Shown here piece by piece: positions 1,312-55,951 of a DNA stretch of 64,000 nucleotides. A program made the position numbers and the translations under genes. The DNA comes from Isurus oxyrinchus. Taxonomy: Eukaryota. Under the pieces are notes generated by a model that was not told the origin of the DNA, did no database searches, and saw only the letters and a program-made list of their open reading frames with translations. The stretch lies in NCBI GenBank assembly GCA_026770705.1, contig JANJGN010000039.1, positions 4,216,001 through 4,280,000 on the forward strand, read 5' to 3'. Numbering within the stretch: position 1 is the first letter of the stretch; every line of letters begins with the position of its first letter.

Positions 1312-1381
1312 CTGGTACACCAACAGCTGCGAGAATAGGGTAGTAAATGGCCTTTATCTTGTGAAGTATCAGGTCTCCCAT
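1312..1381 (-). CDS. Coding exon 1 of a GPR139/GPR142-like GPCR gene (MGDLILHKIKAIYYPILAAVGVP + 1 nt); its exon 2 presumably lies left of the window
   Basis: Reverse complement reads ATG GGA GAC CTG ... GGT GTA CCA G|GTAAGA. It is 70 nt with a canonical phase-1 GT donor and a YYP..AAVGVP TM1-start motif. Paralogous exon at 37033-37102. Confidence 0.8.
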
Positions 1382-1659
1382 CTTTATGAGAATCTGTCTT
1401 TCCTCCTGAGATGGGTAAACAGGATGGAATGGCACGATGTGAGCTGGAAACTACAAACCCCCGTCACCTTTGAATTAATTTCAGAAACATAAAATAAATA
1501 AAGTAAAATCACTGTCGATACTCAGAAGGAGATACCACATTAATTAAACCCAAAATATCAGGGTAAAACTGGCAGCAAAGCATTTGTAACATGGAAGAGA
1601 GATAAGCTGCTATATTTTAGAGACATGAAGTCCTGTACATAAACTTCCAAACCCACTTC

Positions 1660-1925
1660 CGCTACTCCCTAGAAAGACAAGAGTAACATAGACTTGGGAA
1701 CGCCACCATCTAGTAGCTGCTCTCCGAACCACTCACCGCCCTGATTTGGAAAGATATCTCCGTTTCTTCACTGCTTCTGCGTCAATGTACTGGACCTCCC
1801 CGTTATAACACAGACTACAGCAGCTCAAAAATGCATCTCACTACCATCTTTTCAAGGGCAATTAGGGATGGGCAATAAATGCTGGCCTCGCCAGCGTCGC
1901 CCACATTCAATGAATGGATAGAATA
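1660..1925 (+). mobile_element. 3' end of a CR1/L2-superfamily LINE (paralog at ~37385-37650)
   Basis: Tail ...ctcactaccatcttttcaagggcaattagggatgggcaataaatgctggcctcgccagcg... recurs in degenerate form at 17150, 18700 and 51520. Confidence 0.7.
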
Positions 1926-2117
1926 AGAGAGATTATCATTTTTAGCCTGAGAGTATGTAAATAAACATACATTAGACAACGATAACTTCGAAAATGGGTT
2001 TGTAAGTGTCCCATATCTGACAAAGTGAAAAAACGCTATTCGCTGTGAGAAGCGCTAATTGAAGCAGAAACACTGAGTCTTTTGGAGAACATGAAATGAT
2101 CCGTTCAGAGAAACTCT

Positions 2118-2125
2118 TATTTATA
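2118..2125 (-). promoter_or_regulatory. Candidate TATA box (TATAAATA) ~740 nt upstream of the exon-1 ATG
   Basis: Gene-strand TATAAATA in a block well conserved between paralogs (same motif at 37841-37848). No transcript evidence. Confidence 0.35.
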
Positions 2126-3339
2126 CAACAGATAAATCCTCATTAGCTCATTCATGTTCCCTGAAGAAATAAATCAGTTTCAGTCATTGAACAAACAGGT
2201 TATGTCAGTCACTCCCTTGTGAAAGCAACCACTACAAAGTGAAACATCAAATTTTGGACTGATGTCTGTGGTCAAACCAATTGAAGGGGCTGCATGATAG
2301 CGATCAATGGATAAATATTATCGGAGATGGTCAGAGCGGGAAATGATTAAGCCACTAGGGGTTGTTGCGGGATTACTCGTCACTAATTTACACAAAATGA
2401 ATCTTAGCAACACAATGGTTCTGAACCTCCCTACGTAGGGGGCACATTTCTGATGTTCCCCACTGTTTTGTGTTTCTGGATCCATTCTATGTTCCAACAA
2501 GGCACGTGTGTGATCCTTGTCTTTGACATTCAAGCTCCCAGAGGGAAGACATACGCTGCCCAGATCGTTCCTGGATTACACTGGCACTGATACCTCCATC
2601 GGTGACTGGGCTTACATTCTATGGCGTTGCCCAGAAATTTGCACCATTCCGCCTGCAAATTAAAAATGCAACCAGAGGACATGGAGGGTTCGTGCTGGTG
2701 ATTACGTGAGGTGTAACACGATCTGTATGGAGAAGGCATTTATTTTCTCAACCAGAAAATTTCAAAATAATTCTTTCCAGACGTTTCCAAACCTATAAAT
2801 GGTCAATAACCATCCCCCCCCCCCCCCACCCGCCCCCGCCTCCCCCCCCCCGGACAGCAAATCAGTCTATTCCACCCACTCACATATTACGTCCAGAGAG
2901 ATGTTTGGGCTGATTGAAAAACAATGTTTTGAATAAAATAATAGGTTAATTCGAGTACAAAGCTGGGGGAATATTCCAAGCTAAACATTTAACTCCTGAC
3001 CCTCAGATGTCTTCTGCCAACAATCATTGGCCGATGGAATCACTCATTATAATGAAGCAGAATCTCCAGCTGTTGGTTTGCGCTGCATTTCATACAACAC
3101 CAAAATCACAAGAATTAAGGGCAGGGGTAGCTCATTCGGCCTCTTCAGTCCCTTCTGCAACTCGAAAAGAAAATGGTTTACCTGATCGTGGCCTCAGCTC
3201 CATTTTCCTGCCTGTACTTCTCCACCCTGCGTCGCGCACCCGCTCCTCCACACCCTCCACAAAACATACACATACGTCCTCATGACCTCAATATCCTTTA
3301 TTGGTCAATGAACTATCCAAACCAGTCTGGAATATGAAG

Positions 3340-4450
3340 CCGCGCTGAAAAAGATGAAAAAAATGATCAATGTCATTTGCTCTTTTGACGATGACCTGAT
3401 AATCAGAGTGATGCAAAGCAGTTCGATAGTGTGGACCCCTTTCATGTGACTTGCGTTGCCAAGTAAGTCTCTGTCATGGCTTCAGCTCTATTTGTCATAT
3501 ACTTGCCGGCCATTATCCAGTTTACACTCAAAGATTTTGGCACAGGCTTACATAACCATTTCAGGACAAACAGCAACGTTGGCAAACGGCCAAGAGTAAA
3601 ACCTTGCACATAGGTCACTGAACAGCGACTGAGTGAAGGCTTATTCGCAGACTACTGCGCTCGCATTGGGCAGAATCCGGACATATCCAGCTGCATGCTG
3701 AGCGCTTTGCTGTGGACTCAGAACACTTTCGATTAACAATATATCCACAGATAGAGAAGCTGTATCAAATCGCTGCTGGTCACCTGATCCAAGATGCCAC
3801 AGCGGCTGTGAACGAAAAACCCAACTGTTCAGTGCAGACGTTTGCTAATTTGGCAGCATGTTCTCCACGAGAACTACCTGAATGAGCAAATTAAACATCG
3901 CCTGACAAAAGCAAGTTCGGCATTTAGCAGGCTGCACTCACTGTCTTCTGAAAGAAAAACATGGAGCTCCTCTCAGATGGAAGATCAAAGACTGTCAGGC
4001 CGTGTTTTTGTTATCTCAATTCTATGTCAGTGCGAGATTTGCAACATTGATCAGCCTCATTGAAACCTTGTGAAAACATTCCAATTTCACTGTCTGTAAT
4101 CCATTTCCAACGGTAAGTGGCAGGACTGATTCCCACACACAAATATTCTTGCAAAGTGCAGCGTACTGAGCATCGATAACATGGTCATTAGAGCCTCGCT
4201 TCCCAAGGTCAGTCATGTGGTTCATATGGAGAATGCCGACATACCAAAGGCCGCATTAGGTGAACACAGGAAGCTGCACGACAGGATGTTTCAAATCTCA
4301 AAGAAAAACCCAGAGATTGGAAACTGGGTCCCAATGCATGGGCTCCTGATTCCCCCTTGCCAACACCCCTGTAGCGTACCAGAACCATATGAGGCCAACG
4401 CCAGGCGCAGATAAAGCTGCACAGGCTAATGGAAAAAATATAAATATAAA
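3340..4450 (+). mobile_element. Degenerate RTE-clade LINE reverse-transcriptase fragment
   Basis: Remnants of RTE RT motifs: VKQGCV-like ~3455, LFADYCA ~3640, EQIKHRLTKASSAFSRL (ORF 3842-4063). Many stops and frameshifts. Confidence 0.7.
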
Positions 4451-5065
4451 TCCAGAGCAGAATTAGAGAATCCGGCTCCTCCAGCCAGCCTCAACATTCA
4501 ATAACATTATGGCCAATTTGATTGTGGACGCAATTCAGCATTCCGCCCAACTCCAATAACATTTGACACCCTTGGTACCCAAGGATATATCTGTCTCTGC
4601 CTGAAACATATCCAATCAGCTTCCCTACGCAGCACTTGTGGGAAGAGAGTTCCAAAGCCCTTCAACCCTGTGACGGAAATAAATCGCTTCCACCTCCCCT
4701 TCAAACGGGAGACCCACAACTTGAAAACTTTTCTCCCTTTGCCCCAAACTCCACGACAAGGGAAACATTCTCATTGCAAATAATATGGTGAATCCCTCAG
4801 GATCCAACCTATTTCAATCAAAGCACCCCTCTTTTTCCAGACTCCAATTGAAAACGGTTATCCAATCTTTCCGAATTTGATAAAACCCAGACAACCACCA
4901 CCCTCCACCAACTCAGCCTCCCAGGTATCTGCAGAATGAACGCTATCTCAACTGATTCTAATTAATTGATATCCTTTCTTAAAGTTGCAGACCAAAACTG
5001 TGCACCGTTCTTTAGATGTGATATCGGCAACGTTCTGCTCAACTTTAATAAAACATCATTACTGC
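4450..5065 (-). mobile_element. CR1-like LINE 3' fragment (paralog ~42010-42620)
   Basis: Reverse strand gives RVEGLWNSLP (ORF 4625-4807), typical of the CR1 ORF2 C-terminus, followed by a CR1-type 3' UTR. Confidence 0.7.
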
Positions 5066-5459
5066 ATAACTTTAGACATCCTGCTAAATTAGGGTAATAG
5101 CAAATAAACTGAAGAGAATGTAAAGATTGGCATGCACACTTTGTCAGATTTACTGCTAGTAGTTGAACTGTAATTGATAATTAAAGCTTAATTGTAACTC
5201 CTTTTTTGGTATTGATCGTCATGTGCAATTTAACAATTAAGCATAACCATATTTAACTTTTTAAGAATACAAGTGAATCTCCTAACCCCTTTGCCTTACT
5301 TTCTTACAACTTCACATTAACAATGCCCTCCATCTGGTTCTGTAGCATTGCCATGAGCTTATTGACAGAGATGCTGAACAGACCTTGTAATTAAATCAGC
5401 GAATCTGGGAGAAGCTGCAGATCTCAGGTTGCAGCAGAATTATATTCAATTGCAATCCT

Positions 5460-12149: not shown

Positions 12150-12560
12150 GTCTGTGATGTCTCTTCGTTTTCCCTTCCTTATCTCTGTAATTTCCTCCTC
12201 CCCCCCCTAAGGCACCATGATAACTGTGGTAGTCTATTTCTGGCTGCATTATCCTCTGTGAATGTGATGTTTCCAACATTACTGAACTTGCCTTCAGTTG
12301 CCTAGAGTTCATGCTCTGGAATCCCCGCCACGCACAGCCCCACTCCCCCCCCCCCCCCCCCCAAACACCCTCACCCCCACCCCCAGCGCGGCTCCAGATC
12401 TCTGCTTCCCTTTTCTGCTTCAAGATAATTCTTAAGACCGACCCGTTTGACTATCCCTTTGATCAGTTGTCATGTTCTGTTATGTGGAGCTGATCTGAAG
12501 CAACTTGAGCCACGTGATTGTGTTAAATATGTCATATCAATATGATTTGTTGTTGTCACT
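12150..12560 (+). mobile_element. L2-like LINE/SINE 3' end with an internal poly-C tract
   Basis: gccttcagttgcctagag...ctctggaatccc...cttaagaccgacccgtttgac resembles an L2 3' terminus. Confidence 0.5.
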
Positions 12561-16760: not shown

Positions 16761-17340
16761 TGCCAGCATCCCTCATCACACCCTCACCCCTCACCGCCAA
16801 TGCTCTTCTGACAACCAGAGTTTAGCTACAATTCGATATTAATTGCAACGTGAGGTGTGTGCAGGGCCAAGGGGTTATAGATTGTGGTTATATACAGTGC
16901 TGCTGCCGTTGTTCTCCCACGGCTCCTCATGGATGCCTATGTTCCAGTTGGTAGCATAGTACAAGTCTATTCCATTTAACACGCTCATAGAGCCATATTA
17001 TATGATGGAGGATATTGTATTGTGAACACGGGAGTTAATCCATAATGCAGTTGTGAGTTGCTCACTCTTACTCATGCTTTCATGTTTACATGCACCTAAA
17101 ACAGATAGAATGGTGAGGAGGAGGTAACGTAGAATTGTCGTCCTCCTGTATCCTGGAAGTCCATCACTATGTGCACTGTGGGTGTACAAATACACGAGGG
17201 ACTACTGCTGTACAAGAAGGCAACTCTCCACCATCTTCACAAGGGTAAGTACTGATTTCCAAGAAATGCTGTGCCAGCGATTGAAGCCAAAATCCCGTAA
17301 TTGAATAACAGAATCGTGGGGGAGTTCTGATTCTTCAATA

Positions 17341-26320: not shown

Positions 26321-26329
26321 CTGTTGTGT

Positions 26330-37102: not shown

Positions 37103-39049
37103 TTTTATGAGAAGCTGTCTTTCCTCCTGAGATGGGTAAAAAAGGATGGAATGGAACGATGTGAGCTGGAACTTACAAACATACCCTTCTCCTTTGAATT
37201 AATATCAGAAACTTAAAATAAACAATTTAACATCACTGCCGAGACTCGGAAGGAGATATCACATTAATTAACCCCAGAATATAAGGGGAAAACTCTCACC
37301 AAAGCATTCGTAACAGGGAAGAGAGAAAACCTGCTACATTTTACAGACATGAAGCCCTGTACATAAACACCCAAACCCACGTCCGCTACCACCTAGAAAG
37401 ACAAAGGTAACATAGACATGAGAAAGCCACCACCAGTAGCTCCTCTCCAAACCCCTCACCGACGGATTTGGAAATATATCACTGTTCCTTCACTGCCTCT
37501 GTGTCAAAGTACTGGACCTCCCCCTTATAACACAGACTACAGCAGCTCAAAAACGCATCTCACTACCATCTTTTCAAGGACAAATAGGGATGGACAATAA
37601 AAGCTGGCCTCGCCAGCTTCGCCCACATTCAATGAATGGATAGAATAAGAGAAATTCCTATTGTTAGCCTGGGTTTGTGAAAATAAACGTACATTAGACA
37701 ACGAGAACTTCGACAATTGGTTTGTAAATGTCCCGTATCTGACAAATTGCAATAAAGGCTATTTGCTGTGAGAAGCGCTAATTGAAGCAGAATCACTGAG
37801 TCTTTTGGAGAACATGAAATGATCCGTTCAGAGAAACTGTTATTTATACAACAGTTAAATCCCCATTAGCTCATTCATGTTCCCTGAAGAAATAAATCAA
37901 TTTCAGTCATTGAAGAAGCAGGTTACGTCAGTCTCTCTCCTTGTGAAAGCAACCACTTCAAAGTGAAACGTCCAATATTGGACCGATGTCTGTGGTCAAA
38001 CCAGTGGAAGGGGCTGCATGTTTTGATCAATGGGTAAATATTATCGGAGGTGGTCAGGGCAGGAAAAGATTAAACCACGAGTCGCTGTTGCGGGGAAAGT
38101 CATCACTAATTTACATCAAAATGAAGCTTAGCAACTCAATGTTCCTGATCCTCCAGACCTAATGGGGAAATTTCAGATGTTCCCCATTGTTTTGAGTTTC
38201 TGGTCTCATTCTATGTTCCAACAAGGCACTGTGTGATCCTTGTCATTGACTTTCAAGCTCCCAGATGGAAGACGTACGCTGCACTGATCATTCCATGGAT
38301 TACGCTGGCACTGACAACTCCATCGGTTACTAGGCCTACAATCCATGGCGTTGCATAGAAATTTGCGCCCTTCCACCTGGAAGTTATAAATACACGCGGA
38401 GGACGTGGAGGGTTTGTCTTGGTTAATTATGTGATGTGTAACACAAGCTGTATGGAGAAGGAGTTTCTTTTCTCAACCAGAATACTTCAAAATAAAGTGT
38501 TCAAGATGATTCCGATCCCATAAATGCTCAATATCCATTCCTGAAGCAGCCAATCATGCTACAGCACCCACTCACATATTCCATCCAGAGAGATGTTTGG
38601 GCTGATTGAAAAACGATTTTTTCTATAAAATTGTATGATAACGAGAGTACAACGCTGGGAGAATATTTCACGTTGAACATTGAACCCTTGGCCCTCAAAT
38701 GTCTTCTGCCGACTGTCATTGTCCTATTGAGTCACTCATTACAATGAACCCGAAATGTCGTCGCCTCCAGCTGTTGGTTCATGCTGCATTTCATACATGG
38801 CCAACAACACAAGAATTAAGGGCAGGAGTAGGGCATTCGCTCCCTTGAGTCTGTGCTGCAGCTCGGAAAGAAAATGATTTTACCTGATCGTGGCCTCAGC
38901 TCCATTTTCCTGCCTGCACTCCTCCAACTAGCATCACACACCCTACCCCTCCACTGCCCCCTGAAAACACACACATACATCCTCATGACCCCAATATCCA
39001 TTATTCGTCAATAAGCTATCCAAATCACTCTTGAATGTGAGGCCTCCCT

Positions 39050-40450
39050 GAAAAGTTGAAAAAGAGGATCTGTGTCATTTGTGCTTTTGATGATGACCTG
39101 ATAAACAGAGTGATGCAAAGTGGTTCGTCAGTGTGGACCCCTTTCAAGTGACCTGCGGCGCTAAGTAAGACGCTGTTCATGGCTTCAGCTCTCTTTGTCA
39201 TATACTTGGAAGCCATTCTCCACTATGCACTCAAGGAGCTTGACATAGGTTTGTATTTTCATTTCAGGACAAACGCCAAAGTTTGCAAAGAGCCAAGAGC
39301 AAAACCTTGTAATTGGTGACTGAACAGCGACTGAGTGAAGTCTTATTCGTGGACCACTGTGCTTTCATAGGGCAGAATACGGAGACATCCAGCTGCGTGT
39401 TGACTCAGAACACTTTCGATTAACAGTATACCTGCAGATAGAGAAGCTGTATCAAATCACCGCTGGTCACTTGATCCAAGAAGCCACAGCTGCTCTGAAC
39501 AAAACACCCCTCTGTTCTGTGAGGAAGTTTGCTAACTCGGCAGCATGCTCTCCAAGAGAACTAACAATGAGCAAATAAAAAATCACCTGACATAAATGAG
39601 TTCGGCATTGGTCAGGCTGCACTTCAGTCTGGAAGAAAAACATGGAGCTTCCCTCAGATGGAAGATCAAAGCCTATCAAACGCTGTTTTTTTTATTGTGT
39701 TTTTTTATTTGCAACACCATTGGACTCATGTGGAGAATGCCAACATTCCACAGGCCTCAATAGGTTAACACAGGAAGCTGCACGACGGGTTGTCTCAAAT
39801 CTAAAAGGCAAACCCAGAGATTGGAAGCTGCGTCACAGTGAATGGGGTCATAATACTCCCTTGCTAACAGCCCTGTGGCTCACCTGCACCATATGAACCG
39901 TCCGCCCGGCACACTGGAATCCTGATGCTAAACTACACGGTGCACAGGCCTCCTTCAGGCGACAGGCACTGTGCGGATGGAGGATTGTCGACAGGTGCAA
40001 GGCTGTGATATCTGGATACCTTTGATACCAGCTAAAATTCTGCATAAATGCGGCAGATGTATGGCGGTCGCCGGACACATGTTTCGGGAAAGGGGTAACT
40101 ACCGGCAGCTGCATCTGCCACTGAGCAGTCCTTGTCCAAAGGGTGGACAAATATAAAGTTATCAGTGCACGCTCAATGTCGCCGTAAAGCACGGAGGCAT
40201 TAACACCAGTGAGCAGGTTGAGAATGCTGCCGATCTCTCGGCCTGGCACCATCTGGTCCAGCAAGGCTAAAACCAGTTTGCAGCTCAGCGACTCGACAGA
40301 GAATTGGAAGGGCAGAGGCACAGGAAGCAGAAGAAACCCAAAATGGGCCAAAAGCGAGCCCTACGGCGGATGGACATGTAGGTCCAGAATTGGGCTTCTC
40401 AGTCATCTGAATTCTCCATGAGCCTGAAGGAGCTGGATTACAAGGAACGG
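39050..40450 (+). mobile_element. Degenerate RTE-clade LINE fragment including its 3' region
   Basis: Paralog of 3340-4450. The 3' part encodes CRSRIGLLSH (ORF 40209-40421), typical of an RTE C-terminus. Confidence 0.7.
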
Positions 40451-40824
40451 CCACTGACAACCTTCTCAAAGGCAACTTGGGAAGAGCAGTATCTTCTGGC
40501 CCATTTATACACAACCCCACCTCATGAAAATATGTATTTTAAAATATAATTGTGAACATAAAAAAAACCTTTGGCAACCCCAAATTGAAAATTCATTCAG
40601 TGATTTCTACATTTGTGGAGAACAGGTTCAAGTGTGTTAAAGACAAGGAAAGGCGGGCAAAGTTAATTTATCCCGCCTGAACAAACGTTGTAAAGAAAAC
40701 ATGGTAATCGATTGTCCAGTTTAGACTTGGTATAACTTCACAAATGATATCACCTTGATTTTTTTTGAGTGCACACCTGTCGAAGCGCCGGGGGAATCAA
40801 TCATCAAGATAGTTCAATAGACAA

Positions 40825-41000
40825 ACTGATAGCCAGATAGACAGAGAGATAAGTGGACAGAGATTGACATGTGGAAAGAGTGATAGGAAGAGAGAGATAA
40901 CATGCGAGAGAGAGAGAACAAGACAGTGTGTGCTAGAAAGAGAGTGAGTGTGTGAAAGAGCAAGATATATAAATAGATTGATAGATATATAGATAGATAA
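40825..41000. repeat. Low-complexity (GA)n/(GATA)n microsatellite region
   Basis: gagagagagagaac...tagattgatagatatatagatagata. Confidence 0.7.
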
Positions 41001-43548
41001 AAAGCAATATTATTTGTAAGAATATACTTCTGTAGCTATGAACATGATGGGGTGTAAGACATTTGCTTCATGCAACAAATAGCCACTGAAGGATAGTAGG
41101 TAATTTCAACTGTGAGGCAGAAAGAGTTTTTTGTGATAATTTGAAAAAAAGAACAGTAACGAAATGAATTTCCACATGCGAGTATTGTGCTCGCATAGAA
41201 CTGGAAATCTCTCCTGACAAATCCTCTTTAATATGGGATCAGAGATAACGGCCTAGAATTCGGACCCTGACATTCGCTCCAGGTAGCAAATGATACATTT
41301 GAGATGCAATAGTTTCCTCGCAACAGGAACAAAAACGTCACCAAGTTACCTGGAAGAGAGAATAAAGAGGAAGAAACAGAAGTGTTTCACCAGACGTGGA
41401 GCCAAGGGAACAGTTTGCCTTGAAATGTCCTAAAACCCTCCGTTCTTTGCGGCATTTAACATATAAACTGATAATTGGCCTGGGAAACATATTCAGTCAC
41501 AAAAATGTATCTAAATCCCATTATTAAAAACTGCTCGGACAATCACAAACATAAAGTGAACAATCTTTGCACACAATCCACAGAAAGTGCTAAGTGAGGG
41601 AACTGTGTTCAATAAACGCATTCAAGTGAAAGCGAATATATGGATGAAAATGAGACTTAGCTCCACACTCAGTATTTGTTTGTAACAAGGCAGTCGGAGG
41701 TGCAGGTCGTTTGTTCCTATGCGTCACAAGGATCAACAGTGGGCTTTAGAAAACGGGAACAGCCTGAGAGCCACGGCTGGGAGCTTCAGTTTCTGGAAGG
41801 AGTTCGATGTGGAAGCTGGAGGTCGAGCCTGTGAGAGATCCAAACTGGGGGCAGGCAATGAACACTGCTTTCAAGACCTTGAGGCAGATGCACTGTTGGA
41901 ACAGGAGGACATGGTTTAGGGACGAGGGGAAACTGAAGTAATGGTGGATTGAAAGAGCAAGTGATTTCCTCTTTCAAAAGGAGATTAAGCTGCACAGGGT
42001 AATGGAATACGAATTTAGAGTAGAAGTAGAGAAACCGGCTCCTCAAGCCAGCCCCGCCATTCAATAACATTATGGTTCATATGATTGTGGACGCAATTCC
42101 ACATTCCCTCCACCTCCAATAACATTTGATACCCTTGGGACGCAAGAGAATATCTGTCTCTGCCTGAATAGATATCCAATCAGCCTCCCTACACAGCACT
42201 TGCGGGACGAGAGTTCCAAAGCCCTTGAACACTATGACTGAAAAAAATCGCTTCCACCTCCCTTTCAGCGGGAGACCCACAACTTGAAAACTGTTCTCCC
42301 TTTGCTCCAAACTCCACGACAAGGGAAACTTTCTCTTTGCATCCAATATGGACGATGTCTCAGGATCTAACCTATTTCAAAGCACCTCTCATTTTCCAGA
42401 CTCCAATAACAAATGTTGACAAAGTTTCTGAGTAAGTTAACACCCAAACCACCAAAACCCTCCACCAACCCAGCATCACAAGTATCTGCAGACTGAATGT
42501 TATATCAACTGATTCTAATTAGTTGATATCCTTTCTTAAATTTGGAGACCAAAACTGTGCACAGTACCTTAGATGTGATATCGGCAACGTTCTACACAAC
42601 TGCAGTAAGACATCACTACTTCAATAATCAATTTCCTTTGCAATTAACAAAGTACAGAATTCTATTTGCCTTGCTGTACTTGCATATTAACATCGTGTGT
42701 CATGAGAAATCTATGAATTGCAATAACACAACTGATGTGACTTTGAACTGTGAGCCTGTGTGGCTCTTGTCCAGAGAGAGAGAGAGAGAAACTTCTGAAT
42801 AAGCAGTTTCATGTAAATATATACATAGTATTTTGACAACATTTCGATTAATGAAGATGACTGATAAACACATTGTCCTTCATTGAATTTTGCAGGCACA
42901 TATTGCTAACCCATTGTGCTAATAGTGAGACACCATCATTGAATATTGTTTCTATTTAATCCGTTCTAAAAAATAATGGCAAATGAGCATCCATTACAGC
43001 AGGTTTCGAATTCGAAAGTGATAAACACATATCGGGAATGATGAAACTCATCTGACCTGGAAGATCCGCACCATGTCTTCAAATCTCAATATTTCACGGT
43101 GTCTTCTTTTTCACTGGTGATGGTGCCATCCCTGGAAATTTCGGAAGTGAGAGGCAGAATTTCATTTGTCGTTGATAGAACGGCGAGACATGTATTCTAC
43201 AAACACGTTGAATTTATTTAATACGTTCGCAGATGGATGTGTTTTTGAGTATTTAGTGAATTTAGGAATATGGTCACAGTACGGGAAGATCGATTTGAGA
43301 TAGAAGATCACTTGATTGGCGGAGGAGACTCGAAAGGCCAATGCCTTTCTCCAGCTCATGTTTTATATGTTCTCCCAATGTACATGTCGTACTGGTTCTT
43401 ATCCGTCGTGAAGATTGCTCGTTTGAAATGTTCTATCAAGCTTTTAGCCACCAGTGTATTGCATCCTGTTGATCGTAGAGACGAGCAGCTATGTGCCCCG
43501 ATTTTGCAGAGGGTCGTTTTTATTGCTGGTGGTTTGGGTGCCAGATGA

Positions 43549-45757
43549 ATCTCCTCTGGGGATCTCCCTCCCACAGCTTCCAACCTGATAGTCGCCCAAC
43601 CTCGGACGGCCTGCTTCTATCTCCTACCCAAAATCCACAAACAGAACTGCCCAGGTAGACCAATCGTCTCAGCTTGCTCCTGCCCCACAGAACTCATTTC
43701 TCGTTATCTTGACTCCCTTCTCTCTCACCTTGTCCAGTCCCTTCCCACCTACATCCGTGGTTCCTCTGACACCTTACGTGACATCAACAATTTTCAGTTC
43801 CCTGGCTCCAACCGCGTCCTCTTCACCATGGACATCCAATCCCTCTACACCTCCATCCCCCACCAGGATGGTCTGAGGGCTCTTAGCTTCTTCCTCGAAC
43901 AGAGGCCCGAACAATCCCCATCCACCACTACTCTCCTCCGTCTGGCTAAACTTGATCTCACGCTGAACAATTTCTCCTTCAACTCCTCTCACTTCCTCCA
44001 AATAAAAGGTGTGGCTATGGGTACCCGCATGGGCCCCAGCTATGCCTGTCTCTTTATGGGGTATGTGGAACATTCCTTGTTCCAGTCCTACTCCGGCCCC
44101 CTTCCACAACTCTTTTTCCGGTACATCGAAGATTACTTCGGTGCCGCTTCATGCTCTCGTCGGGACTTGGAAAAATTTATTGATTTTGCTTCCAATCTCC
44201 ACCCCTCAATCATTTTCACGTCGTCCATCTCTTTCACTTCCCTTCCCTTCCTTGAGCTCTCTGTCTCAATCTCTGGTGACAGACTGTCCATCAATATCCA
44301 TTACAAACCCACTGACTCCCACAGCTATCTTGACTACAGCTCCTCACACCCCGCTTCCTGTAAGGACTCCATCCCATTCTCTCAGTTCCTTCGCCTCCGT
44401 GGCATCTGTTCCGATGATGCTACCTTCAAAAACAGTTCCTCTGACATGTCCTCCTTCTTCCTTAACCGAGGTTTTCCACACACGGTCATTGACAGGCCCA
44501 CAACCATGTCCAGCCCATCCCCCACACATCTTCCCTCACGCCTTCTCCTCCCTCCCAGAAACATGATATTGTCCCCCTTGTCCTCACTTATCACCCCACC
44601 AGCCTCCGCATTCAAAGGATCATCCTCCGCCATTTCCGCCAACTCCAGCATGATGACACCGCCAAACACAACTTCCCTTCACCCCCCCTTTCAGCATTCC
44701 GTAGGGATCGCTCCCTCCGGGACACCCTGTTCCACTCCTCCATCACCCCCTACTCCTCAACCCCCTCCTATGGCACCACCACTTGCCCACGCAAAAGATG
44801 CAACGCCTGCCCCTTCACTTCCTCTCTTCTCACTGTCCAAGGGCCCAAACACTCCTTTCAAGTGAAGCAGCATTTCACTTGCATTTCCCCCAACTTAGTC
44901 TACTGCATTCGTTGCTCCCAATGTGGTCTCCTCTACATTGGAGAGACCAAACGAAAACTGGGCGACCGCTTTGCAGAACTCCTGCGGTCTGTCCACAAGA
45001 ATGAGCCAAACCTCCCTGTCGCTTGCCATTTTAACACTCCACCCTGCTCTCTTGCCCACATGTCTCTTCTTGGCTTCCTGGATTGTTCCAGTGAAGCCCA
45101 ACGCAAACTGGAGGAACAACACCTCATCTTCCGACTAGGCACCTTACAGCCTTCCGGACTGAATATTGAGTTCAACAACTTTAGGTCGTGAGCTCCCTCC
45201 CCCATCCCTGCCCCCTTTCTGTTTCCCCCTTCCTTTTCTTTTTTTTTTCCAATAAATTATATAGATTTTCCTTTTCCCAGCTGTTTCCATTATGAAAAAA
45301 ATATATATTTTTTTACATCTTTTATGCTCTCCCCAGCCCAACTAGAGCTATACCTTGAGTGCCCTACCATCCATTCTTAATTAGCACATTCGTTTAGATA
45401 ATATCACCATCTTTAACTTTAACACCTATGTGTTCTTTTGTACTATTGTTGTTGACATCTTTTGATGATCTGCTTCTATCACTGCTTGTTTGTCCATACA
45501 ACCACACTCCCACTCCACCTCTCTCTCTCTCTCTCTCCGCCCCCCCCCCCCGCCCCCCCTCCCCACACACACACCTTAAACCAGCTTATATTTCAACTCT
45601 TTCTTGGACTCCAACTCAAGTTCTGTCAAAGGGTCATGAGGTCTCTAAAAGTCAACTCTTTTTTTCTCCGCTGATGCTGCCAGACCTGCTGAGTTTTTCC
45701 AGGTAATTCTGTTTTTGTTTTGGATTCCCAGCATCCGCAGTTTTTCTGTTTTTATAT
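43549..45757 (+). mobile_element. 5'-truncated Penelope-like retroelement: reverse transcriptase + GIY-YIG endonuclease + terminal repeat; inactivated
   Basis: FYLLPKIHK..PGRPIVS, MDIQSLYTSI, GVAMGTRMGPSYA, FRYIED (catalytic YIDD changed to YIED), HYKPTD. Frameshift near 44497. GIY-YIG NLVYCIRC..CGLLYIGETKR..LGDRF (44862-45191). Terminal ...gatgctgccagacctgctgag...gcatccgcagttttt. Confidence 0.92.
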
Positions 45758-48654
45758 TAAAGTAGAATGCTTGACTGGCATCAGAAACATCACCATAAAC
45801 AGTCCAGATGAAAATTGCAGATTTGGGGATAGACTGAGCTTGGGGTTACTAATTATGGTTCTGCACAAATCAGCTGCAGCTAATGGTCCACAATGCCTCG
45901 TGAATGCCCACTTTTGATTTGTTAATCAAGGTGAAACCTACCCCATTTAGGACAATGGTTGTCTCACACCATACGATGGAGAGAAGCCCCAATGTGAAGG
46001 CGGAATGCATCTGTACAAGGACGTGCAGTGGTCTATCCTATCAATTCTTAAATGGACAGCTGCACCTGTGGTGGTTAGGTTTGTGGAGCGAATTCACTTA
46101 GAGGTTTGCACCTGATTGGTTCCCTGACCACCTGCCAAAGACCTAATCTAGCATTTATCTTTATGACTCTGCCAGCTCGGACATTATTGATGCTATTGAT
46201 TTGCTCTTGCTCACAGACTTCAAGGTCTCCGATGGAAAGCATTTTTTTCTTCTCTCTCCCTGAAACTTCGGCCATTGATGATCATTGATTCATCTGCTGA
46301 GGTGAACGGGACCTGGTCAGCAGAAGGGTACATTCATTGCCCATGTGTTACGTGATGTCATGAGATGTCACTTAAGTGCCACGTGTACTGAAGGATATGA
46401 AAAATGGTGCACGCTGGAAGTGTTGCAAAATGGTATTTAGGAAAGCAGTAATAGAATTGAGCATACCGACTAATTCGGTGGATATATTACGTTTTGGATA
46501 AGATAATTTCACTCAGATGTTTGCTCATGATTCGTATGAACTTTCAAAGCAGGAAGATGGATTATTCAGTTAAGGGTAAACAGCTTGAATCATTAAATTT
46601 ATGGAATGATTGCAAATCAAGCAATCAGCTTTGTCCTGGGTAAAGTCAATATCCTTGAATTCTACTGGAGCATACATCATCTAGACAGGTGTAGCGTATC
46701 TCATCACATTCCTGATTTGTGCATTTTAGATGGAGGTAAGGTTTTGGAGAGTCAGTGGGTGTGTTGCTCACCACAACATTTTCAGATTCTGACCTGCCCT
46801 TCGAGTCACAGATTCCAGTCAATGGTTTGTCCAAGGATGTTGAAAACGGGGGCTTAAGCGATGGTAATGCCAATAAATGTCAAGGCTAATTTGTTGGATG
46901 TTCATTTGGTGCAGATGGACATTTCTTGTCAATTTTGCGGGGCGAATATTACCGATCATTCTTCATGACAAGTCTGGCTGTTGCCCAGGACTTGATGCAC
47001 ATGGGCACAGATTTCATCAGCATCTGTTGAGTCGTGAATGGTGCGGAACTTTTAACAATTCTCAGCGGATATAACCTCCCCCCACTTTCCCACACCCTCC
47101 CCACCACACCAGCGTCCTACTGTGTTTCAAATGGAGAGAACATAATTGATGCAGCAGCTTAAGATGGGAGGTCTCAGGACACTGCCCTCAGTCTGTCGTC
47201 CAGTTATGTCATGGGGCTGAGATGATGCACCTGCAAAAGAAAATAAAAGTGAAAAAATAAATTATTTTTGCTTGGTATGAGTTCACTCAATAGGGAAGTT
47301 TCTCCTTATTCTTATTGACCACAATTCTTATACCCCTCCTTGATACCACATTCTGATAACTGATGCATTAATATAGTTCACATCCACTCTCTCCTTATCT
47401 TATAAGTACGGCACCTGTGTACATGTTTGGAGGCAGGCCGAACCAGGAGTTCAGCTCACACGAAGCAAAAAGTGAGCGTCAGTGAGCAGTTTGCTGCCGA
47501 GTATTTGGCGATTGAAAGCATTTTCTATGATACTTTTCATCACATTGATCTTGATTAAATGTCGGCTGATGGGGCTGTACTTAGATTGGTTGGATTTGTC
47601 GTGATTATTTGTGCATAGGCATACCTGTGAAAATTCTCAAAGTTTCGCATAGTTGCCAAAAGTTTAGATGCACCATACCAGCATGGATAGGAAGGCTGAT
47701 TCAGGAGCAGTGATGTCCCGTACTATTGGCATTATCTAAATGGACCCATAACCTCTTCATCATCCAGTTCCTTCAGTCATTCCTGAAATCCGAGTGCTGA
47801 GAATCACATTGTATGAAGACTGGCATCTGTGATGCTTGTCATCCATAGGTGGAGGCCGGATGGTTCATGTACCCGTCACTTCAGGGTGAATGTGGATGCA
47901 AATTCTTCTGCCATGTATATGCACGGGTGTGCTGCGCTCCACATTCATTTCTAATGGGGATATTGCTGGAGAGCAAGTGAGGTGCAGAATTTTACATCAC
48001 CATTAAAGGTGACTGTGACAGGACTTCAGAGCTGAGCTATCGTTATTTGGTTGGGGGATCAATGAGCCCTGTCTTTCTCATGTTGAATACGCTTTTTTGC
48101 TTGCAAGTAGCCCCGGGCTTGAAATTCACCAGGTTAAGCCTTGTTGTTAGCTTTGCATGCTGCTGTTTTGGACATAGGGCAGATGTCGCCAATGTTCCTT
48201 CGTTTGTGCAATTGACCTCAAAATCGTGGAAGGGAAACAGCAGAAGAGTGATGGGAACACTCTTAATTACAAAATCCTTTCTGAGTCACGCATCAAGCTG
48301 ACTTGCAGATACATCAACGTTCATTTACTGTCACTGGATCAAAAACCTGGAAATCAATCGCTCCCAGCAAATAATGCTAAGAGTCATGGGTTTTACGAGT
48401 CTGGCCAATTTGTAGTGAATTAAGCTGTAGAGGATATTAATTTAAACATCGGTGTATTAGGAGTTAGATCTTTATCGTCAGGTAATTGGCAATTCGTAAT
48501 TCTACTTTTCTGAACACAGATTAGTCTACAGACTCAAATCTTTTTGCCCAACATGGTCAACCTTTATCGCAATTTTATGCACTTGGTACCCAGAAAAAAA
48601 ATCAATTTTAAGCTTCACCTTCAAATCACAGATGTTGTCATTGAGACACAAGCG

Positions 48655-49148
48655 ATTGTGTCCTAAAACATACATTTTTCATTTCTGCTGAGTGGGCCAC
48701 ACTTGAATTTATTACCCTTACCTTGACCCCATGTGTCCCATTCATTCTAATCTTGTTGCTAAATGTTTTGACAGCTAGGCGTATTTTGGCAGCCAGTAAA
48801 GTTCGCAGGGGTCTCCATAGTTGCAGTAATGGAGAACATCACAAGGACTCTGAAATAAAAAGCCGAAGAAAGTCCATTGTTTTACTCTTCAGTATTACCG
48901 GCAGCTATATATTGCTCTGGACAACACCTGTTATATATATTATCTCTCTGCATGTAACAATTACTTCAAATTCTGAGGCAAATGATCTTAAGTCAGTTGG
49001 ATTCATGCTAGGGGACCTCACTTGCTGCACAAATGCATTCATTTATGTGCTGACACAGGCTAGGTTTAGGGAGGAGCTGACGAGCGGAATGCAGTACTTT
49101 GTGAAACTGAGCGCAAAACTATGCAAATTACAGTGGATAACCCATTGA
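48655..49148 (+). pseudogene. 5'-deleted GPR139/142-like GPCR pseudogene (ECL2 to TM7 only), inverted relative to the other copies
   Basis: CVLKHTFFISAEWATLEFITLTLTPCVPFILILLLN...LLWTTP...CCTNAFIY..FREEL, stop at 49146-49148. The sequence immediately upstream matches intron 1 (reverse complement of ~23420-23680), so the acceptor and TM1-TM4 are deleted. Confidence 0.85.
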
Positions 49149-52100
49149 CCTGTACAGGCGGACATAAACATTATGCCCTCATAACTCATGTTAGAATAAC
49201 GCTTGTAACAACGTTTAATATCCTACTAAAAAAGGTTTCCTACTTAACATGCTCTGTTACAATATAATGAACTATTATTCACAGTATACAGTAATCAGTG
49301 GTGAATTGTAAGTTGTGATAATAGTAATAAATAATAATTATAATAATACTGAACAGCTCCTGTTAGTGTTGCAGAGTTTGAAAGGATGAATTGTGATGCC
49401 AGGTTTTGACAGCTTTGTGTTCATTGGAACAGTTGTTCTGATCAACAAGAGAAGACCCAAACATCACCAGCTGGATCATGACAACTCGACAAATGTAACA
49501 TAGACAAACTTGGCAAATTTCCTACGACGTCTATTCTGGGGCAATTAGTACATAGGGGGAATTTTCAGAACATGTTTCACGAAGTCTGGTACCTTTCAAA
49601 TATCGAACAGTTGCGCAATGATCTCCATCTCAGATTTCCATTTTCCGCACATGATTAAAACAAGGAAGGCCTGGTCATCACGTGTTTTGTGAAAGGACGG
49701 GCAGTGGCCCATCTGATCACTCATTACCATGATTTATCGGACTGCGAGACGACTCCATATATTGGATTCTGTACATTTAAAGCCGATTTCCCTCCGATTC
49801 ATTTGAATACGCAAATGGCTCATACTTGTTTTTTCACGATTAATGAGGCTACTTCCTCTCCACATGCTCATTCACAACACTCTCTGTTTCATGTTATCCA
49901 GTCCTTTCACATACACACAGCCACCAAATGGCTGTTATCATAATTCTCGAATATTTTCATATGTATGACTTGAAATCCACTCGTCAATGTAGCGAGTGAT
50001 GCTTCAGCCAGGTATCTGCACAAATTCCCAGCCAAGAAACGTCTGATCACACATGGCCCTACCATTCATTTCCTTTCCTGTATACCTACGCATATTGAAT
50101 GTGAAAAATTGTAATGTAATTCTTCTCGTCGCATATTCTTATCATTTACTTAACTTAAAAGCCGTTCGTAGAATGCAACCATAGAAGGTCTACAGCACAG
50201 AAGCAGATCATTTGGCCCCTCCTTTCCTTATTGTCTCACTTAAGGAAGATGCAGCCGGCAGTCACTCTGCCAGCTTCTCCCTGTTATGTGGGTCATTCGC
50301 TTTTCTCAGATATTAATCCAAAATTGTCTTGACGATTCCTGATTAGCCACCCTAATCACCCGGGAAAATGATTGTCCAGAACACCTGCCAATTAACGTTG
50401 CATTAAATAGAAAACTAGAAACGCTTTCCTTGAATAAATGAACATTAAAAACACGACAAGTTCGGTCATGGCATGAGGGGCATAGCTGGCAAGAAAAACA
50501 ATTATTGTCAATCTTTAACTGCTCTTACAGAAAAGCATACGTGATCCGTCTTTTCCAGCAGCTACAGTGTTTCTGATATCTTCACACTGGCTGCTTAGGG
50601 CCCGAATTACTAAATGCCCACACCGCCGGCTCAGCTACCACTCTTTTCTAAATGTTAGCTCTGGCTTTTCGCCATGTACACTTTCTAAATATACATCTCG
50701 ACTGCTCAGCTCCCAGTCCTTTTAGTTCCTGAGGGAACATCAGTTCTTCAGGGTAATGTCCAAGGCTCAACGATGTTTAGCTCCATCATCAATGACCTTC
50801 TCTCCATCTTAAGGTCGGAATTGGAGATGTTCGCTGATGATTACGCAATGCTCAACACAATACGTGACTCCTAAAATCATGAGGTTGTCCAAGGCCAAAT
50901 GCAGCATGTTCAGACTTTGGCTGAGGAGTGGCAAAGGACATTGAAGCCATACAAGTACCAGGCAATGAATATCTCCAAAGAGAAAATCAAACCATCGACA
51001 GCCAACATTCAATGGCATTACCATCGCTGAATGTCGCACTATCAGCATTGTAATGCTTATCATTGACCAGAAACAGAACTGGATTGGCCATATAAACAGA
51101 ACGTCCACAATTGCAGTTCAGAGGCATGGAATCCTGCGGCGACTCCCCAATTCCATTCCACCATCTACAAGCCAGACGATAGTACTGTGATGATATACTC
51201 CCCACTTGCTTGGGTGTGTGCAGGTCCAAAACAGCCAAGAAGCACGACAGCATCTGGGACAAATCAGTCGTAGATTGACACCACATCAATAAACATTGAC
51301 TCCCTCCACAACCGACGAAAAATAGCAGCAGTGTGTACTATCTGAAAGGTGCCACTGCCTGAATTTCCGAAGTCACCTTTGACATTACAGTCCAAACCCA
51401 CGACCGGAGCATCTAGAAGAATAATGGGCAGCAGATTCATGGGAGCTCAACGATTTGGATGTTCCCCTCCAAGCTACTCACCAGTCTGTTTGAAAAGATA
51501 TCCCTGTTCCATCATTGTAATTGGGTCAAATTCCAGGAACTCCCTCCCTAAGAGCACTATGGCTGCGATTCAAGAAGGGAGCTCACCACCATATTCTCAA
51601 GGGTACCTACGTCTGGGCAATAAATGCTGTGCGAGTGATTGACGCCAAAATCCCCTTAATCAATAATAATAAATTATCATTGTCTCTGTGGCTGCACAGC
51701 TACTGCGCTTCCTGTTTCTCCAGTCTGACAGCTCTCTTCTACTATAGCAAAATCAATGTTCTAGACAATACATCCTGCTTCTTATAAAACTATGCTCTAC
51801 CTCATTAGCTTCCTTACTTTTATTAACTTCTGCTTTGGGAGAAGAGTGTCTTTTACTTTCCTATCTGTGTTTTGATTATCTAGCTCCAATTATTTTTAAA
51901 TCTATTTTGGGGGGGTGGGGCAGCCACTTTCTAATCCTTGCTTTGAATACCTCGCTGTAGCTTTTTTTAAAACTCTCCTCTGGCAGCTCAGCTACCGCTC
52001 TTTTAGCTTTCTGCCCTGGCAACTCATCTACTTCTCTTCTAAAAAAAATGTCACCTGTTCGTGATCAGCTCCCCACTCTCTCTAAATCACTGCTCTGACT

Positions 52101-53099
52101 GTTCAACTGCCGCATTAAAAGAATAATTTAACCTGCACTGACTACCAAGAGTCTAGCCAGCAATTGGAGACGGTTGAGTTTAATTAAGAATGGCCATTGG
52201 TTTGTATCACCTTGACTTAAAATAAGAATATGCTTGTATAACCTACTAGCATTTTGATATCACAACAGAGAAAATTAATGAATTAATATATGGCGAAGTG
52301 GATTTTGAGATATTAATTGACAACTAATCGCAGATAAGGCTGCTTAAGAACATTTACGCTCATTAAAAAGGACAGAGGCGCGGATTGTGGGAGGGGGAGG
52401 AGTCGCTTTCCAATTGCATCAATTGTGGTAATGCACAGAAAACAGAAACTATTTATTATCGTTTTCATTTAGTTTGGATGATGGTAGCCGGTGCCATTCC
52501 CCAGGAATCCGGGTTTGTTTTATTTTTGGTCGACATAGACCAGTTGAACCTTGGATTACAGCACAGTGTCTCAAAAAGTGTTAGTGGTGCAGACATGGTG
52601 GGAGTTTACCAGTGAGGATGATACGAATCGGACATCGAGAGACCAGCAGAATATGCAGGGGATTAGCAGATGCAATTTGTTGTATTGCAATGTAAAATAA
52701 TACAATTTGGCAGAAGGGGTAATGAAGGGAAATAGAGATGGACTGTCACTGTCCTAAAGCATGTGATAGAATGGAGGGATCAAGGTGCATGTGCTTCGAT
52801 TTTAGAGTATGGCAGACAGAGCCATGCCTCGGGTATGGAAAATTGTGGCGACCGGGCCTGGCACCGCACATTGAGGGTGGGTGTGGACTGCGCTGCGGTG
52901 ACCTGTGAATGCGGGCGACAATTCCTACCTGGGTAAGTTTGAAGGTGACTGTTTAAGTGACACAAATGTGCCAGCCTATTCGTATTTAGGATTCAATGGC
53001 TAGCACGTGCAGAGACAAAGGAAATGGGGACAATATTGCTTGGAAGCAAAGAAAAGTCAGAGAAAATAACGAGAGAATGATAAGACCTTGAAATGTTCT

Positions 53100-54300
53100 C
53101 TGGAAAATATCTGACATGTTCTGTGATTTCTGCTCTGGCTAGCACGTGACAAAAGTAGTAATCCTCAGATCAATCATTTGAGGTCCTACTTTTCAACATA
53201 CTTCCTAACTCCTTGCATCCTGCTATTAGAAGCTAATCCCGGCATTGACCTATGTCGTTTGTAAAAACGAGTACCACGGCCATTGTATGTTCACCCTCTC
53301 ACTTCAGGATGTCTTTTAGCCGCTCTGAGACATCCTTCACCCCAGCATCAGGGAGGCTACATAGCATACTAGAGCCTCGTTTGCAACCACATAAACGTCT
53401 GTCTATTCCCCTTACAATTGAATCACATTTTACAAGTTCATCCCTATAATGTTCACTCATCCCCTGGGCAACAAAACCAGCCGTGGGGCAACGGCTTTGA
53501 CTGCTGTTGCTTTCTCCTGAGAGGCCACTACCTCCAAATGTTTCCATAGCAGCATATCTGTTTTTCAGTGGAATAGCCACAGGAGATTGCTGCAATCTCT
53601 GTCTCGTCTTCTTGCTCTGACTGGTGGTTACCCCTTCCCTTCCTGTGTGAGGACTCTAAGCCTGTGGTATGACCACGTGCCATCCAAGATACACTGCGCC
53701 TCATGGATGCACCACAGTGTCCCTACACGCCGCTCCAGCTGCGAAACCCGGGCTTCTAATATATGCAGCTGGCGACACTTTGTGCACACATGCTGGACCC
53801 GGGCACTGGAAGTGTTCCAGGCTGCCCACAGAGAGCAGGAGGAACACACCATGGCTTTGAGCCCTCCTGCCAGACTTACCCACTTAATTTAAATTAAACC
53901 TTTAGGAATATATTTAATATCACATAAAATCAATTAATTTAAGGCTCCTCTTTGTTATAGAGTAAAACCCTGACAATCGATGAGTCACAAAATAAAACTT
54001 CAATAAGTATATGCTTTAAAAGTAGCAAATCGTTGCCCTTACCATACTCACAGGAAGATCCCGTTCCCTCGTCGCTGAAATCCATTAGTCGCTACTGCTC
54101 TCCCAACCCTTTTACAACCCACGACTCCTCTCGGGCTTCTCTTCAACTCCCAGCTCCTCTCGTGCTTCTTCTCAACTCCCGAATACTGCCGCGCTTCTCT
54201 CCTCTTAGTTAAGCCCTTGGTTAAACACTTTTTAGTAGTGGAGCACGCACAGAAACAATATTTAACATAGAAAATCATCTTTCAAACCACTTTTTAAAAT
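53100..54300 (-). mobile_element. CR1 LINE 5' portion: ORF1 remnants (zinc finger/leucine zipper + SGNH esterase) and probable 5' UTR
   Basis: ORF 53628-53852 (CSSC..W...VCTKCRQLHILEARVSQLE) and ORF 53299-53595 (DSIVRGIDRRLCG...CSLPDAGVKDVSERL). Confidence 0.8.
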
Positions 54301-55062
54301 CAGCTTCTCTGGATGTGCCAGATGCGACAGTGATATTTGTTCCGAAATGATTTTGCATTAATCAGGAGGATTTTGACTGATTGTGCTTAACCTCCCCCTC
54401 AGATCTGCCTCCACGTCTAATCAACCATCTCTCCCAAAATCATTTTATAAAATGTGATCTTGCACGAATTCATCTGCTGGCTGGATAATTGAGAATATGT
54501 AGTCGCAGAATAACTGACAGCAATTTAGGTGCAACATATAATGAAATTTCTTCAGTTAAAAGGTTGCGAATCTTTGACATTCTCAACCACAGAGAGCTAC
54601 TGATGCTAGGACGTTGAGTTTTTACAATATGGTACAATATGGTACAAACTGGATTAAAGGTGTTGGGATTTTTTATTACAATTGGAGCGAAGTTTCTTTT
54701 TCTTGTTAAATGTTTTCATGTCATGGGTGAAACAGCTGGTGATGTTTGATGTGGTGTCTTACAGAAATGAACAACTGTTCCAAATATACGGTCAGAGCCA
54801 GGAGCGTCAATTCACTCTTTCCAGCACTGCAATAATATTTGGCACTGTTTAGAATGTTTTATTAATATTATTACACATCACATTCACCTTTGACTACATA
54901 CTATGGTGCAAAAGAGTACAATTTGAGCTTATATTATAAAAAAGTAGGTAAACAATTTTATCCAGAGAGTATAAGCATCATCTAAAGCACTTTGCCAATA
55001 TGAGTTGCTTCAAGGTTCACGTGTGTGTTCTCCTGAGTTTGTCAATGCATTTTCAGCTGTAA

Positions 55063-55951
55063 TTATGAATTGAATAATTTTACGCACAATTTCCTAAGGT
55101 ACAACATCCCATTCTTCAGCTCCTTCCTAAACTTAGCCTGTGTCAAAACGTAAATGAATGTACTTATGCAGCAACTGAGAAGTACAAGCATATATGCAAC
55201 TGATTCAAGCTTATTAAGACCAGAATATGAAATAATTGTTGTATGCAAAGAGACAAAATATACAACCAGAGTGGCCCATAAGAATATAAAACTGCTGGAT
55301 ATACTGAACAGTAAATTCATGGATTTTCTTCGCTTTCTATCTCTGAATCCTTGTGATGCTCGCCATTGCTGCAAACATGGAGGCCCTTGCGGACTTTATT
55401 GACCACTAAAATACGCCTAAACATCAACATATTTAGCAACAAAATTAGAATGAATGGAACACATGGGGTTAAGGTAAGGGTAAACAAGTCAAATGCGGCC
55501 CATCCAGCAGAAATGATAAATGTCTGTTTTAGGACACAACCGTGATTTACATTGTCCACTATATTTTCAGGTTCATCTGCAAAATACCAGGGAATGTTTA
55601 TCAAGCAGCTCAACACAGTTACCACTGTTATGATAGCTGTTGCCGTTTTCTCTGTGCAATGTTTTTTATTATGCTTCTCACAACATATGGCCACAAAACG
55701 ATCGAATGTGAACATCACTGTTAGCCAGACACAGGCTGATGTGACTACATAACTCAGTGTTAGTGTTAGACAGCACACAGGGGGCATTGAGAAGAATGAA
55801 CTGGGGCAATAAATATCTACTGTACTCGTAAGTATTACGTCAGTACAAACAACCAGGAGGTCAGTTGTTGCCTTGGCTATCATATAACATGTAACACATT
55901 TCGAGAGACCACACTTTCCACGGGAAAGAATCATAATTGCAACAGCATTCA
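55063..55951 (-). pseudogene. GPR139/142-like GPCR exon 2 with a 1-bp frameshift in ICL3 (probable pseudogene)
   Basis: Acceptor tctctgacag|TGAAT. ORF 55317-56033 carries TM1-TM5 and ORF 55063-55374 carries TM6-TM7. cttcg-ctttct at ~55333 vs cttcgtctttct in the intact paralogs. No exon 1 found in the window. Confidence 0.85.

Follow-up and report, generated by a model that had tools for sequence, protein, structure and literature searches.

The 64,000-nucleotide (nt) stretch of Isurus oxyrinchus contig JANJGN010000039.1 analysed here, called the window below, contains a piece of a tandem cluster of class A (rhodopsin-like) G-protein-coupled receptor (GPCR) genes in which new duplicates stand beside decayed copies. 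The family gene consists of two coding exons, a first one of 70 nt and a second one of 905 nt; all 70 nt of the first are coding, and it has a phase-1 GT donor and ends just before N1.50 (residues are given in generic class A numbering). The window has one complete gene, exon 1b joined to exon 2B across an intron of 8,937 nt, coding for a class A GPCR of 324 amino acids (aa). It is the only one because the 5.9-kb tandem unit described below lacks exon 1 and the partner of exon 1a would lie outside the window. The exons are:

1381-1312 (-): exon 1a, Met and first half of transmembrane helix 1 (TM1); its partner exon 2 would fall left of the window
37102-37033 (-): exon 1b, first coding exon, located with the first-exon peptide profile
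22186-21282 (-): exon 2A, intact distal duplicate, 905 nt, AG acceptor
28095-27191 (-): exon 2B, intact, 905 nt, AG acceptor

Run over the window, the first-exon peptide profile gave two matches alone (E 7e-12 and 3e-12; the next best was 1.1), and blastn, tblastn and the profile revealed no further first exon there, nor a cryptic one within the tandem unit. The two first exons and two intact second exons of the original prediction, made from the letters of this DNA alone, are all present, but the two genes that they implied come down to a single complete one. Around exons 1a and 1b, 140 of 151 nt are identical, against 85% across the 4-kb block (p=0.004). Exon 1b yields the 324-aa protein with either exon 2A or exon 2B, and both are followed by AATAAA at +155/+187. 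Exon 2A would require an intron of 14,846 nt and is usable only if splicing skips exon 2B together with its poly(A) site; most probably it arose by recent duplication as an orphan exon, and use as an alternative last exon is conceivable. For A, B and D no in-frame upstream Met was found from which exon 2 could be read as an intronless gene. Under neutrality the frame of exon 2A would have stayed intact with a probability of 60%; 7 of the 13 coding changes between A and B are non-synonymous (p=0.09), and their divergence is alike in coding (13/900) and flanking (71/5000) positions. When these changes are polarised, more of the derived ones apparently fall on A, in very small numbers, and one of them removed an Arg that 105 of 120 relatives retain.

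The window proteins score 82.8-83.5 bits against Pfam 7tm_1 (curated cut-off 30.5), and copy B carries N1.50, D2.50, C3.25, the D/E-R-Y/F motif, P5.50, N7.49 and Y7.53, as do 92-100% of the family rows. At E<=0.01 7tm_1 was their only domain and no OR, V1R, V2R or T2R domain was found, the same being true of the listed homologue P0001 at E<=0.1. TAAR and aminergic receptors have an amine-binding Asp at 3.32; such an identity was rejected, this position being Ile in B and highly variable in the family (3.46 bits). The structure predicted for exon 2 from a 93-row alignment (predicted local distance difference test, pLDDT, 92.1; predicted template modelling score, pTM, 0.86) comprises the second half of TM1, TM2-7, a hairpin in extracellular loop 2 (ECL2) and a long helix 8, and it superposes on class A structures with Z ~26-27 and a root-mean-square deviation of ~3 Å over ~265 residues. 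Its neighbours, nearly all tied, are peptide receptors (CCK1, galanin, orexin, neuropeptide Y, opioid, neurotensin). The family keeps D2.50, DRF, P5.50, W6.48, N7.49 and Y7.53, with mostly Thr at 6.50 and 7.50. The top 50 rows of the fold search lie within 1.4 Z units, GPR139 being 39th and 43rd with Foldseek and outside the VIA top 50; the ranking of this predicted fold singles out no family and says nothing against kinship with GPR139.

Broken copies and history of the cluster

There are six second-exon copies in the window, A and B intact and the following four broken:

48657-49148 (+): pseudogene C, coding remnant from TM5 to the C-terminus in open frame, 3' half only, inside inverted unit C
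55951-55042 (-): pseudogene D, exon 2 with one 1-nt deletion near 55333
15563-14730 (-): relic E, exon 2 of an old pseudogene that belongs to another subfamily, many stops and frameshifts, AG acceptor kept
41349-41066 (-): relic F, very decayed 5' part of exon 2, family profile E 8.5e-6

Three of these pseudogenes had been predicted and are indeed there, while relic F raises the count to four. D was lost by the 1-nt deletion, and C by losing exon 1 and the 5' half of exon 2. D also differs from the consensus at 8 of 61 family-conserved sites, N7.49 among them, against 3 in B and 2-3 in two lamniform relatives, which makes a sequencing error an unlikely source of its frameshift. Exon identity of B to D and C is 78.5% and 81.4%, above intron identity, and the ratio of non-synonymous to synonymous substitution rates (dN/dS) is 0.38 and 0.44. 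Since the exons are better kept than the introns and dN/dS has these values, C and D were functional for most of their history; purifying selection acted on them for a long time before they were lost. Relics E and F are much older. The family profile matches relic E at 3.7e-21 and 1.4e-15, and this copy is 50-54% identical to Heptranchias models versus 31-40% to A. In the reversed window, used as a control, no profile match was better than E 0.029, whereas the weakest of the real copies reaches 8.5e-6.

Direct, tandem and inverted duplications can all be seen, as the original prediction had it:

1..5066: direct duplicate of the segment 35704-42623 (exon 1 plus flanks), 80-85% identical
20421-26320 / 26330-32231: tandem duplication of a 5.9-kb unit with exon 2 and without exon 1, 98.5% identical
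45765..53103 (+): inverted paralogous unit C, with an intron homologue at 45765-48524 (66-73% to the B intron)
56062..62479 (-): intron homologue of gene D, direct, 61-68% to the B intron; exon 1 would fall right of the window

The 5.9-kb tandem duplication is the youngest event of the cluster and carried exon 2, the acceptor and the poly(A) signals, but not exon 1. Its copies differ by 84 evenly spread mismatches and 3 small indels, and their junction (26321-26329) is a 9-nt filler matching neither copy edge, which would fit end-joining or template switching rather than homologous crossover. A purely local question is whether the pair could be an assembly artefact, two haplotypes set in tandem. 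The high identity, the even spread of mismatches and the missing exon 1 would agree with this, but there is no N gap at the pair, the filler is found in neither copy edge, and doubled exon-2 motifs also occur in Heptranchias gene models, so that we consider an artefact improbable. The gene models suggest either that exon-2-only duplicates recur in the family or that annotation often overlooks the 70-nt exon 1. Doubled motifs are present in 5 of 200 models in all (P0002, P0004, P0012, P0018 and P0191), and 16 of the 200 public gene models start at a Met in TM2, without the first exon.

In unit C, where no exon 1 was found, an internal deletion has brought the intron homologue up against the 3' half of exon 2, after which the downstream flank follows. 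Unit b, the copy holding exon 1b, has ~2 kb (39914-42005, with relic F inside) that is missing from its paralogue between 4409 and 4443. A frameshifted Penelope-type retroelement (43549-45492, +; reverse transcriptase E 2.4e-6, GIY-YIG E 0.0097, neither reaching the Pfam cut-off) occupies the place expected for exon 1 of unit C, and a second copy, 88% identical to it (63362-64000, -), lies in the presumed D intron. The inverted pair 17150-17309 / 18702-18861 (160 nt, 93% identical) recurs in weaker form near 37371-37606 and 51563-51666 and is probably a short interspersed repeat. Positions 53221-53412 (-) match the N-terminal extension of shark model P0075 (E 9e-6), probably a repeat-derived piece in that gene model. 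The sole assembly gap of the window is at 63232-63361 (130 N). Flanking genes, tRNA and Rfam matches were not found in the window, which has only four short tandem repeats, and ten other open reading frames gave no Pfam family above cut-off.

Family range and relation to GPR139

The protein search returned 2308 clusters at E<=0.001 among 4210 candidates. The best 120 of them, which were listed, all belong to cartilaginous fishes, the closest being from basking shark (75% identity) and white shark (73%). Among these 120 there are at least 46 clusters of Heptranchias perlo and at least 42 of Heterodontus francisci (clustered at 90%), lower bounds that cover the nearest subfamilies only, and each of the two species has 42 distinct 8-site pocket signatures. 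A search of 50% representatives gave 105 matches at E<=1e-30. For P0121-P0200, 16 entries were checked, 14 of them named as sharks, rays or Callorhinchus and 2 without species, and the remaining rows are taken as chondrichthyan from their similarity. On sequence grounds the family is a chondrichthyan expansion (sharks, rays, chimaera) with dozens of copies per genome in some sharks. This agrees with the lineage-specific growth proposed originally: copies are many rather than few in Heptranchias and Heterodontus, and for the amphibian relative one cluster per species was seen. In catshark and bamboo shark, near-identical proteins have consecutive accession numbers, which suggests that these species also have tandem arrays. 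The whale-shark orthogroup OG0000365, with 7tm_1 and 157 proteins from 12 taxa but without a listed human gene, may be the same family.

The basking shark and white shark proteins, both lamniform, join copies B, C and D in a 100/100 clade, in keeping with a lamniform origin of the window. In both trees the chondrichthyan rows fall on one side of a branch (90/65 with 41 rows, 86/78 with 18 rows), and an amphibian/sturgeon group is their sister (93/62 and 85/62). This gene (Pleurodeles XP_069092602.1, annotated "probable GPR139") is the nearest non-chondrichthyan relative, 32% identical over 294 aa, and has motifs of intracellular loop 3 in common with the shark family. It differs from it by a near-invariant pocket (0.14 bits), by keeping WxP in TM6 and by the single cluster seen per species (21 of 25 matches). 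The same conserved orphan GPCR (P0218, P0276-P0295) occurs in salamanders, frogs, a caecilian and sturgeon, with Ser 1.50 and Asn 2.50; no teleost or amniote was among the 25 matches of this word-limited search.

A second paralogue group, of coelacanth type (XP_005988539.1), belongs to the same superclade and is 31% identical to the window protein. It has conserved shark members of its own, 60-66% identical to coelacanth and apart from the expansion, and its pocket is conserved. This orphan (P0231, P0245, P0300-P0417) is present in sharks, coelacanth, ray-finned fish, amphibians, turtles and squamates, no mammal or bird being found among the best 120 of 145 matches; W6.48 is missing from it, R6.51 is retained, and lancelet proteins are its companions in the tree (94/94). 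A possible identity is GPR210A or GPR210B (PMC6504862). Neighbours in the ESM Atlas were all generic, of 7tm_1/Srw type, apart from one chordate cluster named "probable GPR139".

Among characterised receptors GPR139 comes closest by sequence (profile E 2.4e-28, the sole receptor at E<=1e-20 among solved structures), and like the shark genes it has two coding exons (PMC7318219). The shark family also resembles GPR139 and GPR142, vertebrate orphan class A receptors for Trp/Phe, in its short N-terminus and in the lack of Pro at 7.50, and unlike them it has mostly Thr instead of Pro 6.50, dozens of copies and a Trp/Phe site that is not conserved. Against window exon 2 the salamander, coelacanth and lancelet proteins score 130, 108 and 87 bits, and human GPR139 43 bits (E 3e-10, from a different library). 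In structural alignment the window model is 21-22% identical to the GPR139 structures, while the human and zebrafish GPR139 share 70% (PMC7318219). The Trp/Phe site of GPR139 was defined by mutagenesis and modelling as F3x33, H5x43, W6x48, N7x38 and R6x51 (PMC5430874). At F3x33, H5x43, W6x48, R6x51 and N7x38 copy B has Y, V, W, P and I, keeping one of the five; across 179 rows none is kept in 4, one in 61, two in 76, three in 31, four in 7 and all five in 0. GPR139 lacks the TM3-ECL2 disulfide cysteines (PMC5430874), and the family has C3.25 in 97% of rows and the ECL2 Cys in 175 of 177. Because identity, pocket residues and disulfide differ, the family is not an orthologue of GPR139, as had been suspected from the start, and its separation from it is supported by these comparisons despite the "probable GPR139" label in databases. 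Homologue searches returned no true shark GPR139/142 sequence.

Variability of the predicted ligand pocket

The pocket was defined as 30 generic class A positions, and rows covering less than 90% of TM1-7 (sharks) or 85% (controls) were dropped, leaving 179 of 204 shark, 21 of 21 amphibian/sturgeon and 115 of 120 coelacanth-type rows. Mean entropy in the sharks is 2.47 bits in the pocket, 1.67 at other extracellular helix sites (p=1e-4) and 0.92 in the intracellular half (p=3e-11). The corresponding values are 0.73, 1.01 and 0.91 in the coelacanth-type control, which has a similar overall divergence (mean identity 63% versus 56% in sharks), and 0.14, 0.60 and 0.57 in the amphibian group. The pattern is also found within single species, pocket versus intracellular entropy being 1.78 versus 0.46 in Heptranchias (46 rows) and 2.00 versus 0.60 in Heterodontus (42 rows). 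In 668 close shark pairs 40% of pocket sites differ versus 10% of intracellular ones, and in 1198 close control pairs 12% versus 15%, the pairs not being independent of one another. When 188 helix positions are ranked by shark-minus-control entropy, 17 of the top 20 belong to the 30-site pocket list (p=2e-13). Even inside the window the pocket differs at 13 of 30 sites between D and B versus 25 of 107 elsewhere (p=0.029), and at 7 of 17 versus 6 of 51 between C and B (p=0.013). At the same time 61 family sites are at least 90% conserved. The whole pattern fits a repertoire that would have diversified its ligands on a fixed G-protein face.

Interpretation and comparison with known repertoires

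The family is likely to be a repertoire sensing many different external ligands, a reading to which we give a probability of about 60%. A conserved intracellular half with a variable pocket is how repertoires for numerous external chemicals are laid out, as is established for the OR, TAAR and MRGPR families. It has also been argued for class A expansions of lophotrochozoans (PMC11886862). The sensing system suggested by the original prediction thus gains support from the hypervariable pocket, although it is still inferred. The family would descend from a low-copy gene of jawed vertebrates surviving in amphibians and sturgeon (weak tree support). Each paralogue would bind a different ligand within the helix bundle and ECL2/ECL3, because the N-terminus has only ~10 residues, and all of them would signal, by way of their conserved face, to one shared G protein, Gq/Gi if the kinship with GPR139 is a guide. 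GPR139 and GPR142 share a common origin with the MIP, RGWa, FMRFa, proctolin and myosuppressin receptors (PMC8514136); because of this kinship with the MIP/FMRFamide receptor clade and of the hairpin fold, peptides or amino-acid derivatives would be the likeliest ligands. The cells concerned would be chemosensory (olfactory or solitary chemosensory) or sensory cells of barrier epithelia. Barrier or immune cells are an option too, because sharks lack the MAS1/MRGPR group (PMC8455134). In the window itself exon 1b would splice to exon 2B.

Several points weigh against this reading. The best 120 matches hold only 2 Cetorhinus clusters and 1 of Carcharodon. Chondrichthyan monophyly and the sister link to the amphibian gene are not strongly supported; neither tree includes a true GPR139/142 row, and the finding that the family falls in no already characterised clade applies to the clades in these trees. 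The 30-site pocket list is our assumption from generic numbering rather than measured on the model, and the entropy comparison sets paralogues against orthologues. In the only two DNA pairs, B-D and B-C, the proportion of non-synonymous differences in the pocket (pN 0.25 and 0.24) is not above the overall synonymous one (pS 0.37 and 0.30), so relaxed constraint is a possible cause of the variability. Finally, a catshark "brain and olfactory epithelium" top-50 list contains no GPCR gene, whatever the family (PMC11979771).

The copies might instead be receptors for co-diversifying endogenous peptides (reproductive, pheromonal or immune-mediator). Kinship to the invertebrate MIP/sex-peptide/FMRFamide receptors, through the common origin of GPR139/142 with peptide receptors (PMC8514136), and an ECL2 hairpin of peptide-receptor type, with the two disulfide cysteines kept, would be expected then. 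In endogenous-peptide receptors, however, the pocket is usually conserved, and it is conserved in both control groups. We know of no matching expansion of peptide genes, no search having been aimed at one, and consider this explanation unlikely. The expansion might also be mostly copy-number drift in a repeat-rich, duplication-prone genome, the pocket being freed from constraint because the receptors are redundant or need no ligand to signal. Of the six copies of the second exon in the window four are broken and another has no exon 1 of its own, pocket pN does not exceed pS, and tandem duplication in batoids scales with genome size (bioRxiv 2025.06.08.657570). Drift is nevertheless rather improbable in our view, as the pocket varies more than neighbouring extracellular helix sites off the pocket list, 61 sites are conserved with dN/dS ~0.4, and many divergent intact subfamilies exist across sharks, rays and a chimaera. 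That these are true GPR139/GPR142 co-orthologues sensing tryptophan and phenylalanine is hardly credible: the database names, the best match by sequence among solved structures, the two coding exons (PMC7318219) and a His at 5.42 in 40% of rows point that way, against the low identity to human GPR139, the Trp/Phe site kept entire in 0 of 179 rows and the higher scores of the amphibian, coelacanth and lancelet proteins.

The repertoire reading would make this an apparently undescribed and independently evolved class A receptor family of cartilaginous fishes. Full-text searches, which did not extend to subscription journals and some supplements, found no paper describing the expansion; only 4 papers mention both GPR139 and sharks, and going by their titles they treat other topics. 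GPR139 is not named in the main texts of PMC8455134, PMC11886862, PMC11979771, PMC13113109 and PMC10620051, nor in the readable supplements of PMC8455134 and PMC10115646. A survey of tandem clusters in rays names SUCNR1 and V2R in its text (bioRxiv 2025.06.08.657570), sharks have been credited with a "relative paucity" of GPCRs (PMC8455134), and the chemoreceptors of catshark amount to 2 canonical ORs plus 6 OR-like, 3 ORA, 3 TAAR and ~34 V2R (PMC11979771, PMC10116579). The family is already in public annotations, hidden under the automatic "probable GPR139" label, a misleading name that the two related conserved orphans of fish, amphibians and reptiles bear as well, and its 42-46 or more members in two sharks, with a hypervariable pocket, sit outside these surveys of GPCRs and chemoreceptors. 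If the reading is true, whether for smell, chemosensing in skin and gut or immune surveillance, it would change the account of chemical detection in sharks. A bolder version, tentative and in our opinion doubtful, is that the family is an unrecognised fifth large chondrichthyan chemosensory GPCR family, independently evolved from the GPR139/peptide-receptor clade, at least as large as the V2R repertoire, sparsely expressed in olfactory or other chemosensory cells and filling the gap left by the tiny OR, TAAR and V1R sets.

The OR, TAAR, V1R, V2R and MRGPR families and the lophotrochozoan expansions (PMC11886862) are all alike in their tandem clusters, pseudogenes, lineage-specific growth and variable pocket on a conserved scaffold, and the shark family shares these features. 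None of these groups is homologous to it at the family level, and the shark family would have arisen independently of them, from a clade related to peptide receptors.

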